A DNA stretch of 64,000 nt, taken from assembly GCA_004022145.1 (NCBI GenBank), contig RCNU01000009.1; one strand, given 5' to 3'. This document shows positions 47,171 to 51,878 of this stretch, piece by piece (within the stretch, counting starts at the first letter, position 1; each line of letters begins with the position of its first letter). This stretch comes from Paecilomyces variotii. Its lineage: Eukaryota. The notes under the pieces are model-generated. The model saw only the letters and a list, made by a program, of their open reading frames with translations. It did not search any database and had not been told where the DNA came from. Both the position numbers and the translations under genes were made by a program.

Positions 47171-47918
47171 TTAACTTCCTCCTTCAGGTTTCGTTACTGA
47201 TGCGCCGGTTGTTCCCTGGTCCTGGCCTTTGTTGTCCCCTTCGAAGACGAGCCCTAAGTTCTTGAAATCGTCTGGAGCCATAAGATTCCTATTCGCAGAC
47301 AAATACAATTAGCATCCCTCAAAAGTTCATGTGCTTTCCTACGTATCAACAGCAAGGGGTGCGATAGCAGGATCGTCGCGAGAGCGCAATCCAGTCTCTC
47401 TCTAGAAACCCCAAGCAACCGGGTTATTGGAGAACGACATTGATGTCAACGACAGAATTCACTTACTTGTCCATGCGACAACCCAAGTATCCTTTCGCGA
47501 GTTTGCGACACCGCTCATCATTGACGCCTTTCTGCGACTTGAGACACTTGATGTATTCAGAGATCAGGTGCTTGCATTCTCCTGCAGGGAGGACAATACG
47601 TATTAGCAACGTCGTATTAATGTATTTTCAACGGGATATAGACAGTCCAGAGATATTATTCTCTAATCCAAAACCCGAAGATTGACCACTGAAAGAACGC
47701 GCTCGAACGGGAAAGGTGCTCCAGTACCGTCATGATCAAGAGGAAAGCTACCACGCTCAGGTCTGTTTAGAGAAGTATTAGTCTCATAAGTCCAATAGAA
47801 GATTCGAACTGCTCTTGAACGAGCTGGCTGATGCGATTGAAGACCACGAGGGGTATTCAATAACTCACGGCGTGGGCTTGAAGTTGACGGCACCGCCACC
47901 TGGGCTTCCAAAACTCAT
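47171..47918 (-). CDS. COX19: COX19 twin-CX9C cytochrome c oxidase assembly factor, 4 exons
   Basis: Spliced [67 protein letters not shown]. Confidence 0.93.
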
Positions 47919-48658
47919 GTTTTCTAGCTATCCCTGCTTCAAGAAAAGTACTCAATGGCTTGAGACGAAAATAGTATAGATTTTCGCCGGACGACGTTCT
48001 GCAAAGCAAATCCTCTTCTTCCTTTCTCTCGCTGCGCCGCTTTGAATCGGGACCTCGGAAAGACTTCAAACAAGACAAAAGGTACAAACACCACTAGCTC
48101 CATCCAGACTCCGTCCGCTTATCCCGAATCATCTCTTACTTGCTGCCAACGAGATCCACATGAACGAGTCATGCTACTCCCATCGATTGAGATAGAATAA
48201 ATTGACTCGTCTATTGGTAAGCTCATCCACGATGCGGGCATTTCGTATCTGTAGAGCCAGGCCTTCAATGCTGTGCCAATCTTATCGAGGCGTGTATATA
48301 CAGACGTCTACTATTCGTACATAGCCTGTGAAAATTGTAGGAAATCAGAATAGGCTCTGATACCTTTTGTACCGTCTTCTTCAGAACAAGTACTGTCTTG
48401 ATAAGGGAAACCTGCGGAGTAATTCCGCTCCTGAAATCTGGTATCAAGCCGTGAGACCTGCCGATTTGGACGGACCCCCTCAGTTGTATGTATGACGTCC
48501 CAGCCCCTCTTTATCAACTTATTTCTTAATACGTAGTCCCATCTACAGGATCTTTCATTTCAAATTTCTCTTTCGCGCAGGATCAGACCTATTATCTGGT
48601 ATTGTTATTCGATCGACATACGGTTTCTTCCAACCATCTCTACTACCGCCGATTCACG

Positions 48659-49330
48659 ATGCCGATGTTAGTCGTCTTCCTATTTTGACGGGTGACAGCC
48701 AGTCGCGTCCAATATCTTTATCCACGGGGTTACTAACATTGCTGGTAAATATGCAGGCTACTCCTGGGCAGCTGCCAATGCGGTGGCGTTGAATTTTCCC
48801 TTGAATCGCATACTCCGGTCCCATACCAGCTCTGCGCATGCAGTATCTGTCGGAAAGTTGGCGGCTACAACGGCTGCGTGAATCTCGGAGGCGTCGCAAA
48901 GACACTGGTAATCAAGAAAGGGAAAGATCTCCTTAAGTAAGTTATATATCTATTTCCTGTGCAGGCGCTCAGTTCATTGCGTATGATGGATTGGTAGCGT
49001 TCGGGACTGATTGTGCTCTTTGGCAGGAAATACACTGCTATCAAAGATCGCGGCAAGCCAAACCAGCAGATCTGCTCGTCGGAACGTAATTTCTGCTCTA
49101 ATTGCAGCACGATGCTCTGGTTATGGGACCGTCATTGGCCAGAACTGATTCATCCGTTTTCGTCCGCCATAGACACTGAGTTGCCTGCTCCAGATGAGAT
49201 GGTCTGCGTCATGGCAGGTTCCAAGCCGAACTACGTGAGGTGGCCGGAGGGCAAGAAGAGCGTCCACGAATTGTATGGCGAGGATAGCATTGAAGGATGG
49301 CATAAGAAACATGGCCTTTACATTCGGTAG
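48659..49330 (+). CDS. GFA/CENP-V (Mss4-like) zinc-binding protein, 3 exons
   Basis: MPMLLLGSCQCGGV..YQLCACSICRK..RNFCSNCSTMLW..HPFSSAID; introns begin GTTAGT (48667) and GTAAGT. Confidence 0.85.
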
Positions 49331-49757
49331 GTTTACGACAAAGGGAAAACTGGCATGAGAATGGTATGACAATGTATTCATTGATCTAGCTAGCGAGAAT
49401 TATGGACCACCTGATAGGTGCTGCAGTTTATCTCGTCGACGAGATGTGGGGTATCTTATGATCTTCCAATTGTTAGTCAAGGATTCAAACTCAAGATGAG
49501 TAGTACAGCAAAGTGGAAACAAATTCGAATCAGTTCTCCAAGATGAATAAGATTCTTCAACGTGTAACTCAGTAAGAACACAGCGAATAAAGAGTTCATC
49601 ACGAAAGAATATGCAACGAGAATGGAACAAAACTTACAATCTAGGAGGAAAACGTCCGCTATTGCAAGGTAAGTTCCTAGCGAGACCGAAAATGTCAGCG
49701 ACATGACTGAATAAGCGATCCTCTGCAGGATGATGAAAGATATAAAGGCATATCATC

Positions 49758-49920
49758 TATCTCAGGCTTTGCGCCCATCTGTTAGCATGCGCACTTCCTT
49801 CTGTTCAGTACTGGAATACGACATACCTCATTAAATCAGAATTTTCAGTGTATACGTTCATACCCGGAACACTGTTGGTGTATCCGGTTCAAACAGTGTG
49901 AATAGTGTTCATCATTTGAA
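49758..49920 (-). ncRNA. snR51: Box C/D snoRNA snR51 homolog (25S Um2729, 18S Am100), split by an internal intron 49826-49767
   Basis: C box ATGATGA 49915-49909; TATTCACACTG before D' TTGA is complementary to 25S CAGUGUGAAUA; after splicing, CTGATTTAATGAG|C-CTGA is complementary to 18S GCUCAUUAAAUCAG. Confidence 0.88.
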
Positions 49921-50045
49921 AGATGATAGCCATATACTTCGGGGAATCAGGGCTCCTTGTGCATATGAGACAGTACCTAGTGACATTAAGGTCAGTTCGA
50001 GTTCGAATCATACAATGATATCAAAAATGCGAGTCATGTTGATAA

Positions 50046-50180
50046 TCAATCAGGTGACGAGTTCTCAACAAGCATTTCGCCTCCCCAGCACCCGCAAAGT
50101 TTGTACGCTTTGCTTTTCATGGATGAGGGCAGATGAATCCGTTCTGTCCGCCCGTTCGTTCATGGCTTCTTCATGAAGGG
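50046..50180 (-). ncRNA. snR70: Box C/D snoRNA snR70 homolog (18S Cm1639)
   Basis: C box ATGAAGA 50174-50168; ACGGGCGG before D' CAGA is complementary to 18S CCGCCCGU; extra element GTACAAA pairs with the adjacent UUUGUAC; D box CTGA 50053-50050. Confidence 0.85.
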
Positions 50181-50295
50181 GTCGCGTGGTGAGGTGTGGG
50201 AATGTTGATAGATAGAGAATAAAAGTACCTATTAGCGTCGACTGTTAGTTACTGCGAAATCAATGGCATGGGACAAATGATATCGTTGTAGAGAT

Positions 50296-50393
50296 TGGAT
50301 CAGACAAGGCTGAAACTTGATTTATTGACAGGTTCCACATGGATCTTAAGATTGAGGAATGCCTTTCGCATGTCATATGAGTCATCACAAAAG
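50296..50393 (-). ncRNA. snR41: Box C/D snoRNA snR41 homolog (18S Gm1126)
   Basis: C box GTGATGA 50388-50382; 14-nt AAGTTTCAGCCTTG is complementary to 18S CAAGGCUGAAACUU and precedes D box CTGA 50303-50300; position upstream of snR70 and snR51 matches the yeast cluster order. Confidence 0.88.
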
Positions 50394-50555
50394 GGGGGCG
50401 GTGAGAATGAACAGCGAGGAAAAGTAAACGTACCTTTTACAAATTGTATGATGAGCAAGATGGAGTACGCGATAGGAATATTATTCTAAGCCTAGTTTCG
50501 AGGTATTAGCAGCTGTCATACCAGATAACGACGCAACCACAATTGTATGACGGAA

Positions 50556-50639
50556 GGCATCAGAGTAATTCTAGAGTTTTTTTTTGAAGTCCTTCATGGT
50601 CATAGGATTTTGTGGATAAAAAATTTTTCATCACTTGAG
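50556..50639 (-). ncRNA. Box C/D snoRNA, U45/SNORD45-like (18S A equivalent to human Am159)
   Basis: C box GTGATGA 50634-50628; 12-nt CTCTAGAATTAC is complementary to 18S GUAAUUCUAGAG and precedes D box CTGA 50563-50560. Confidence 0.82.
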
Positions 50640-51878
50640 AAGAGTATATAAAATAGAACGTATGGACTTACCATTAATGAATAACAGGTAGTGTCACAGC
50701 TATGCAGCTAGTAGGTGAGAATATCAAATATAAAAGGTCATGACGCCTTCCAGGAAGGGCGACATCAGCCCTGCCGTGCCTGCGGCAGATATTTTGCTGA
50801 GAAGAATTAGTGTGGGATGGGAACAAAAATTTATAGACGCGTAGGCAGCGCTACGGAGCGCGCTTGTTACCTTAAGCGAAAGTTGAGCCCCACTTAGGTA
50901 GGTCCGATGCATTGACCAATGCGAACGAGGATCTCCAGGTTCATGAATTGAACAACTGCTGGTTCATCTGTGTTGATTTCCTCCACCTCCAAATACTACA
51001 TATATCTACTCTAAGGAGAGGCTCCCTCAAACTTAAATGAAGAATTTCGTAGTATGAGTGTCCGGAAAGGATCCATTTATCACGCACCACTGGAAAGAAT
51101 CAGCCAGCGGACGATGATCGCATGGATATTACTATCTCTAGGAAGTACTTCTATCAAATTGTATTCTTTCAGGATGGGTAGTCGGTCATACGCCTAATAT
51201 ACTTCTTGAATCCTGAAGTCGTTGGGGAAGTTATTATTAGAAGCAGACTCACAGGAGCGCTAGATGAGAGTGTCTCAAAACGTCCCCATCACGTTAGAGA
51301 TATTTGCAAGAAATTCCGTATACAAAGTTCAATTTCAAGGGAATGATTAAGCCTAGCGCCATCCTGAAGATTCGCGCACTGAATGGGTTGGACATATGAG
51401 TACTCGGATTCACAAGTGCATAATGACCTGTAAGTCAAAAGTCCCGCCGGTAACTATGTATGTACCTTGAGGAATTGACACTCTGCTTCGCTCGAATACA
51501 CTTCACTTGTACGGGGTGCTCGTTGCTTTCTCATCCTTTTACTGCAGCTAACTAATGACCATAGACGAGCTGCCTTCGTTACTTCCTGCTTTTATACTGG
51601 CGAAGCTCGCGTCCCTCATATAGACGTCATGGTTTCCCGGGCTGACTTTTACGACACACACTCTAAGGGCTTTTCTGCGTCAATTTGACGTCGCTTTACA
51701 GTGTCGCAGGTCCCCCTGATTGCATAATCCATACGCGGCCTGGGATGTTAAATATCTCAAGCTGTCTCCTTTATCGCTCAAATCAAAACTGACCGGTATT
51801 GTTGCAATAGCATAATTTAGCCCACCAATGAATCATATATTATCCAATATTACCCCATTTCGTCCGATATAATCCAAT

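Follow-up and report, generated by a model that had tools for sequence, protein, structure and literature searches.

Zero-length exons between adjoining snoRNA introns in a Paecilomyces variotii host gene and the probable recursive splicing of its cluster III transcript

Architecture of the snoRNA host gene

The window, a 64-kb stretch of Paecilomyces variotii DNA, carries a snoRNA host gene on its minus strand, and all sequence elements given below were read directly from that strand. Exon 1 (50672..50795) has an approximate 5' limit, with RNA contigs extending to 50795 and a depth of zero from 50812. It is followed by intron A (50492..50671, 180 nt; donor GTAAGT, branch point CTAAT at 50509-50505, acceptor TAG), in which a box C/D snoRNA at 50638-50558 takes up the U45 position of the cluster III of Luo et al. 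(2013; PLoS One 8:e58547, PMC3596301), and by exon 2 (50434..50491, 58 nt), which ends in GTAAAAG at 50434.

Introns I, II and III then make up a 757-nt stretch with one box C/D snoRNA in each. Intron I (50229..50433, 205 nt) has the donor GTACGT, the motif CTAAC at 50248-50244 (branch A at 50245) and the acceptor TAG at 50231-50229, and contains snR41/Afu_455 (50392-50298; Rfam RF01860, 85.1 bits). Its acceptor directly adjoins the donor of intron II, forming the first zero-length exon, TAG/GTACTT (50228..50229). Intron II (49977..50228, 252 nt; donor GTACTT, CTGAC at 49995-49991 with branch A at 49992, acceptor TAG at 49979-49977) contains an snR70-like box C/D RNA at approximately 50178-50048, delimited by an RNA contig and a 3' end, and meets intron III in the second zero-length exon, TAG/GTACTG (49976..49977). 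Intron III (49677..49976, 300 nt; donor GTACTG, CTGAC with branch A at 49695, acceptor TAG at 49679-49677) holds an snR51-like box C/D snoRNA, the short unspliced form of which spans 49834..49919. Within this snoRNA lies the nested intron B (49767..49826, 60 nt; donor GTATGT, CTAAC with branch A at 49782, acceptor AAG), and the 3' piece of the long form of snR51, consisting of C, the box D CTGA and G, is located at 49761..49766 and is joined to 49827. Exon 3 (49638..49676, 39 nt) has RNA joints at both edges and is followed by intron C (49463..49637, 175 nt; donor GTAAGT, CTAAC with branch A at 49473, acceptor AAG), where Afu_294 (49606-49527; RF01506, 76.1 bits) occupies the U55 position of Luo et al. 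(2013). The start of the last exon (49300..49462) continues past 49300. All of these features are on the minus strand.

No ATG-initiated open reading frame above 86 amino acids was found in 47500-51500 and none spans the exons, and the host gene is therefore considered non-coding. The snoRNAs follow each other on the minus strand in the order U45-position, snR41, snR70-like, snR51-like and U55-position/Afu_294, each within an intron, and this five-snoRNA order, the missing interior exons, the presence of intron B and the non-coding host all match the Euascomycete cluster III. In the preliminary description, two acceptors had been placed directly against donors, at 50229/50228 and 49977/49976, with each junction between two snoRNAs; the adjacency is confirmed with all coordinates correct, and the flanking position of snR41/Afu_455, the snR70-like and the snR51-like RNAs is borne out.

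Counted over the 64-kb window on the two strands together, the compound motif CTRAC-N4-30-YAG/GTAYK has two matches, namely the two zero-length exons, as against an expected count of 0.38 (standard deviation 0.61; 200 Markov-1 simulations). The branch point lies 11-16 nt from the acceptor at both sites. As bare YAG/GTA is common in the window, with 51 occurrences against 35.7 expected, the signal is carried by the branch point and the placement rather than by YAG/GTA itself.

Splice junctions in RNA contigs

The RNA evidence consists of assembled contigs from four runs of four studies, aligned to 49300-50900. Two of the runs (X6 and X11) are labelled as RNA, a third (X1) is presumed to be RNA, and the fourth (X5) derives from a related strain. 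Contigs of this kind can reveal joints but not lariats, splicing order, quantities or the absence of a form, and their coverage has gaps, such as 50542-50649 in X1 and X6 or 50218-50379 in X11. In the last exon, 163 nt of the 617-nt record 1 of X1 fall in 49300..49462.

Removal of intron A is recorded by the joint 50491>50672, which skips 180 nt (given as 50490>50671, with the cut at +1), and that of intron C by 49462>49638, both in X1, X6 and X11. Across the zero-length exons, the joint 49976>50434 skips 457 nt and corresponds to the removal of introns I and II (X1, X6 and X11), while 49676>50434 skips 757 nt and corresponds to the removal of introns I, II and III (X1 and X6). The skips of 457 and 757 nt equal the sums of the intron lengths, and all the listed joints have GT..AG ends on the minus strand. 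The junction 50434>50228, produced by removal of intron I, appears in X1 and X6 not as a listed joint but as a loose end at 50234 of a contig that covers intron II. The 15 loose letters at this point correspond, in reverse complement, to bases 50454-50440 of exon 2, and the six bases between the loose end and the junction read TAAAAG in the exon and TAATAG in the intron. As these differ by one letter, the aligner overran the junction by one mismatch.

The junctions that the preliminary description had proposed to look for, 50434>50228, 50434>49976 and 50434>49676, are thus all present in the RNA contigs. The same junctions agree with its statement that exon 2, which ends in AAAG, would regenerate AAG/GTACT before the next intron. 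Joints removing intron II or III with intron I kept (50229>49976 and 49977>49676) are not listed in the four runs of contigs.

The related strain is represented by a single unspliced contig of 4548 nt, which is uninformative on splicing and shows 24 differences over 1.6 kb. Two of its substitutions fall in the zero-length exons, namely CAG for TAG at 49979 (the acceptor of zero-length exon 2) and GTATTT for GTACTT at the first internal donor (50225); judged by sequence, both keep splice-site function.

Identity and 3' ends of the snoRNAs

RNA 3' ends are marked by poly(A) or poly(T) loose ends at 50558, 50298, 50048 and 49834, each exactly 2 nt past a CTGA, which is the usual end of mature box C/D snoRNAs. 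The 3' end of snR41 at 50298 was found in X6. The intron A snoRNA ends at 50558, as set by a poly(A) loose end, and is covered by an X11 contig (50568-50638); its only Rfam match is a weak one to snR51 (25.7 bits). The snR70-like RNA has the C box ATGAAGA and a CTGA, is covered by an X11 contig (50048-50178) and ends at 50048 in a poly(A) loose end. No Rfam family was retrieved for the snR70-like RNA or the U45-position RNA at E values up to 10, and both names are assigned by position alone. For the snR51-like RNA, Rfam snR51 scores 28.5 bits (gathering score 44) and snR67 23.4 bits, both below gathering, and both of its guide motifs are conserved in the metagenome loci described below, among the matches listed. 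Weak Rfam matches to aspC, snoR86, WT1-AS_2 and PhotoRC-I were all far below gathering and were rejected as noise. The snoRNA 3' ends in the window all lie 64-84 nt upstream of their own 3' splice sites.

Two irregularities were seen in the contigs over these RNAs. The X11 contig over the snR70-like RNA ends at 50178 in 10 loose letters that match, in reverse complement, a sequence lying slightly beyond this point, probably through an assembly fold-back at a short inverted repeat that surrounds the C box. In Afu_294, the X6 and X11 contigs break at 49547, where the loose letters are runs of A or T; strain variation or an artefact of low complexity may be the reason.

Conservation of the zero-length exons

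The comparative set comprises at least 113 loci from metagenome contigs, picked by an exact 19-base snR41 guide and a box D pattern. As the loci were picked by this exact 19-mer and are without taxonomy, many of them may be close relatives. The 8-mer of the snR70-like guide occurs downstream of snR41 in 89 of the at least 113 loci, in addition to the window.

A branch-like motif, YAG and GT in succession occur between snR41 and snR70 (junction 1) in 70 of 72 distinct spacers among the matches listed, at a site with a median distance of 72 nt past box D. Of the two misses among the same matches, L069 still reads TAG/GTACAT and L008 looks unrelated. Between snR70 and snR51 (junction 2), the pattern is present in 48 of 62 distinct spacers among the matches listed. 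By eye, the 14 misses break down into a zero-length exon whose branch motif is unusual (L077), a TAG/GC (L012) and 12 distinct spacers that seem to keep a small exon. When the branch-point condition is dropped, YAGGTA is found in 68 of 69 distinct spacers at junction 1 (resampled control: mean 1.0, maximum 5), while junction 2 has it in 51 of 62 (control: mean 3.8, maximum 8), again among the matches listed. The conservation of YAG/GTA, which the preliminary description had put forward as a check, is therefore evident at both points.

Position +3 of the internal donors, which lay outside the search pattern, is A in 67 of 70 cases at junction 1 and in 44 of 48 at junction 2 among the matches listed. 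The acceptor, by comparison, alternates between TAG and CAG (36/34 at junction 1 and 26/22 at junction 2, among the matches listed), with AG/GTA fixed. The retention of GTA beside a varying Y, in spacers that are otherwise unalignable, provides an argument that the internal donors are used, since a donor that is never used would not be expected to be conserved in this way.

The 12 small exons at junction 2 range from approximately 10 to 90 nt by eye and include a 10-nt micro-exon in L070, suggesting a route from exon to micro-exon to zero length. By eye, and among the matches listed, none of the 12 acceptors in these spacers is followed by GT. The loci that retain the junction 2 exon (L070, L007, L011, L028, L040, L048, L071 and relatives) largely overlap with those that have no intron inside snR51.

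Donor strength and the end of exon 2

Among the matches listed, 61 distinct loci have a C box, and in 41 of them a first donor was assigned, as AG/GTR 30-60 nt upstream of that box; in the other 20, placement failed or was ambiguous. Exon 2 ends in AAAG in 35 of the 41 loci with a placed donor among the matches listed; in the window this AAAG lies at 50437-50434, and such conservation is unusual for the end of a non-coding exon. The donors differ in their use of G at position +5, which, among the matches listed, is present in 35 of 41 first donors (exon 2/intron I) and in 45 of 46 donors of the nested intron B, as against 14 of 70 donors at zero-length exon 1 and 13 of 48 at zero-length exon 2. 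In the internal donors, +5 G thus occurs at about the neutral rate, so that these donors would be weak beyond +3 and would have to lean on the acceptor AG and, later, on the conserved AAAG. The donors of zero-length exons may accordingly represent a distinct weak class, defined by GTA only, with a neutral +5 position and a reliance on the acceptor AG and AAAG.

Mechanism of splicing

What the sequence and the contigs show is the arrangement of the motifs, the three kinds of junction in RNA, the conservation of the sites and the 3' ends of the mature RNAs; from these we infer that the internal GTs are actually used as donors, in a strict order and with the release of separate lariats. Under this reading, to which a probability of about 0.75 is assigned, the introns are removed one at a time from 5' to 3' with regeneration of the internal donors, that is, by recursive splicing. 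The host gene would be a conserved cluster III Pol II non-coding transcript from the minus strand that delivers five intronic box C/D snoRNAs, and the two exons that once lay between the snR41, snR70 and snR51 introns would have shrunk to nothing; with the interior exons lost, each acceptor TAG adjoins the next donor GTA. The strong first donor, AAAG/GTACGT, would pair with the nearest branch point and acceptor (50245/50229), and the first ligation would set the exon end AAAG before GTACTT (50228). This donor would be used with 49992/49977, bringing AAAG before GTACTG (49976), which would finally pair with 49695/49677. Every snoRNA would be released in a separate lariat, at a distance of 64-84 nt upstream of the matching 3' splice site, in the arrangement of one snoRNA per intron that maturation requires. 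Intronic snoRNAs are matured by exonucleases that trim the debranched intron, a route that works only if an intron holds a single snoRNA, and the spacing of 64-84 nt to the 3' splice site is one known to favour the processing of intronic box C/D snoRNAs (cited in Liu et al., 2009).

The same intermediates would also arise from one donor with three acceptors, and it is in this respect that the recursive splicing proposed in the preliminary description is only partly supported: the intermediates and the conservation of YAG/GTA speak for it, but the intermediates fit both schemes. The two possibilities were raised for this cluster by Luo et al. (2013; PMC3596301), who report 42 ESTs with intron I removed in 18, introns I and II in 14, all three in 10 and out-of-order removal in none, and who consider either stepwise 5'-to-3' splicing or one donor choosing among three acceptors. 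In the latter case, the donor GTACGT at 50433 would be joined to 50229, 49977 or 49677, RNAs that keep intron II or III would be dead ends, and lariats with two or three snoRNAs would be cut apart by an endonuclease. Such a scheme predicts all three junction forms as well as the absence of out-of-order products, in keeping with the contigs and with the 42 ESTs of Luo et al. (2013), and it would account for internal donors that lack +5 G in about three quarters of the loci among the matches listed. It draws further support from S. cerevisiae, where the same snR41-snR70-snR51 cluster is matured by Rnt1 cleavage. It leaves unexplained, however, why GTA is conserved behind an acceptor with a variable Y (68 of 69 distinct spacers at junction 1 and 51 of 62 at junction 2, among the matches listed) and why each snoRNA keeps its own branch point geometry of 64-84 nt. 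An intron of 457 or 757 nt that skips good branch sites would, moreover, be odd for an intron-defined fungal gene. The spacers also offer no stable stem: in a search for Rnt1-type stems, the two spacers of the window folded no better than shuffled sequences (z -1.30 and +1.03), a weak negative result in which nothing suggests endonuclease stems. Use of a single donor is thus considered unlikely, and the conservation of GTA after a varying TAG/CAG, as a comparative argument, favours recursion over it. If the internal GTA is under selection, as this pattern suggests, it argues on a question that Luo et al. (2013) left open.

A further alternative is that the three introns are independent and removable in any order. 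TAG/GT re-forms whichever neighbour goes first, so that strict recursion starting 5' would not be required; were intron II to go first, the TAG at 50229 would come to stand before GTACTG (49976), with both sites surviving. Two pathways are described for cluster II of Candida parapsilosis by Donovan et al. (2016), which lends this alternative some plausibility. Neither of the joints it predicts, 50229>49976 and 49977>49676, was present in any of the four runs, although contigs can miss rare forms, and none of the 42 ESTs described by Luo et al. (2013) was out of order, although ESTs can miss rare forms as well. Removal in any order is consequently regarded as very improbable. That the AG/GT sites are coincidences with no splicing role, a view for which the abundance of bare YAGGTA in the window (51 seen, 35.7 expected) might be cited, is refuted by the RNA junctions, in which both sites are used as acceptors, by the spacer conservation across dozens of divergent loci, and by the branch point at 11-16 nt and the placement between snoRNAs that both sites share.

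Recursive splicing therefore remains the preferred reading, and under it the zero-length exons would permit the host gene to lose every dispensable exon base and yet obey the rule of one snoRNA per intron.

A nested intron and two possible forms of snR51

The nested intron in snR51 was absent from the preliminary description, which had snR41, snR70 and snR51 released separately. As intron B (49826-49767) lies inside snR51, removal of intron III alone does not release the whole of this snoRNA. The snR51-like RNA has the C box ATGATGA and the guide TATTCACACTGT, then a second guide ACACTGAAAATT followed by an internal CTGA, and intron B sits between the 18S guide CTGATTTAATGAG and box D. The joint 49766>49827 (X6) brings CTGATTTAATGAG directly before CCTGA and restores box D, and an X11 loose end at 49827 continues with CCTGAG and poly(A). 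Splicing to a second acceptor, the TAG at 49757, extends the intron to 70 nt, produces the joint 49756>49827 (X1, X6 and X11) and removes box D.

The signature of intron B, GAG/GT..NAG/(C)CTGA, is present in 47 of 61 distinct loci among the matches listed, while nine of the 61 have no intron B, with box D in place and GAGCCTGA read contiguously. Since the intron-less loci read GAGCCTGA contiguously, splicing of intron B restores the ancestral 3' end. The X11 poly(A) loose end at 49834 marks a second 3' end of snR51, 2 nt after the internal CTGA, and the 16 consecutive bases ending there are those of the 3' end of the Rfam snR67 consensus. The short-form guide before the internal CTGA is found in many intron-bearing loci and in no intron-less one, among the matches listed.

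With RNA 3' ends at 49834 and 49761, snR51 may therefore exist in two forms with different guides. In the unspliced short form, ending at 49834, the guide would be ACACUGAAAAUU, the same sequence as the D guide of yeast snR67, with a 25S target five bases from the D' target of snR51. In the long form, spliced at the acceptor 49767, the CTGA would become part of the 18S guide CUGAUUUAAUGAG, with a new box D and a 3' end at 49761, while splicing at the second acceptor (49757) would delete box D. It is tentatively suggested, on the basis of single contigs in one run, that snR51 is a two-form snoRNA in which the guide set is chosen by splicing of the nested intron; this is a possibility to which less than even odds are given. 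If it is true, the balance of the three snR51 outcomes could set the methylation level of two rRNA sites.

Several published observations are in keeping with both forms of snR51. Liu et al. (2009) describe N. crassa CD6 as a 76-nt 'exon-encoded' snR51 homologue, and A. fumigatus Afu-277 is described as a 100-nt cDNA with an 18S Am97 target. In some lineages, according to Canzler et al. (2018), the snR51 family has the D target of snR67. No statement of the two snR51 forms as splicing alternatives was found in the literature search, which covered few subscription journals. The donor of intron B can pair just upstream of its branch point (49757-49833; minimum free energy -19 kcal/mol, z -1.64, not significant), which recalls the short inverted repeats at intron B noted by Luo et al. 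(2013).

Comparison with known systems

The arrangement in the window is already known for the same gene cluster. Luo et al. (2013; PMC3596301) describe cluster III as an intron-intron-intron arrangement in all Euascomycetes, with U45 and U55 introns added upstream and downstream and with intron B, which carries no snoRNA, placed within snR51 where it separates the antisense element from box D. The host gene of P. variotii is the same gene, with both interior exons missing, the same intron B and the same spliced products. The caution on novelty in the preliminary description was hence well placed, stepwise splicing of this Euascomycete cluster having been published in 2013 (PMC3596301). Because the idea of zero-length exons has been published for cluster III, the window adds confirmation rather than discovery. 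It contributes one more species, together with a comparative argument on the question that Luo et al. (2013) left open. Beyond that article, the additions are the species with RNA-contig junctions, the survey of at least 113 loci, the weak +5 position and the AAAG end of exon 2, as well as the two acceptors for intron B and the two 3' ends of snR51. No paper testing lariats for cluster III was found in the literature search, which covered few subscription journals.

Related arrangements occur in other fungi. According to Donovan et al. (2016; PMC5033589), citing Luo et al. (2013), cluster III of D. hansenii depends on recursive splicing, since snR41 and snR70 are separated by an exon of size zero. 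In the snoRNA polycistrons of Candida and Debaryomyces, as described by Donovan et al. (2016) and in citations of Mitrovich et al. (2010), adjoining snoRNA introns are likewise separated by exons of size 0 or 1, but some junctions overlap, with nested introns and a 'negative' exon size, and the need to create a splice site beforehand imposes the order of splicing. The window differs in having clean zero-length exons at which no splice site has to be created. A close counterpart is the S. pombe SPNCRNA.445, the host of snoRNA61, for which Chen et al. (2018; bioRxiv 10.1101/226894), by spliceosome profiling, describe spliceosome-generated ends at a zero-length exon. The likeness extends to the 3' splice site next to a 5' splice site in a short snoRNA host intron, conserved across the genus; SPNCRNA.445, however, has direct 5'-P/3'-OH ends from spliceosome cleavage, whereas the exons of the window are known from contig junctions.

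The stwintrons (spliceosomal twin introns) of Aspergillus and Hypoxylaceae similarly involve consecutive splicing within one intervening sequence in filamentous fungi. A stwintron has an inner intron that disrupts a splice signal of the outer one, be it donor, branch point or acceptor, whereas here intron B, which is 150 nt away from the outer donor and 69 nt away from the outer branch point, interrupts a snoRNA. Identity with a stwintron was rejected, as intron B interrupts no splice signal and introns I-III adjoin rather than nest.

The zero-length exons would represent the smallest natural case of recursive splicing, and fungi with short introns would offer a convenient system in which to study how the spliceosome uses a donor without an exon of its own. 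At the ratchet points of Drosophila and vertebrates, joining the upstream exon to an AG/GT likewise re-creates a 5' splice site. These metazoan ratchet points, which have strong GTAAGT donors, subdivide introns that are tens of kilobases long, whereas the window follows the same logic with pieces of 205-300 nt (757 nt in the composite) and donors that are weak beyond +3. The junctions of the cluster III host gene thus work like metazoan ratchet points without being members of that class, and their apparent purpose here is the placement of one snoRNA in each lariat rather than the handling of intron length.
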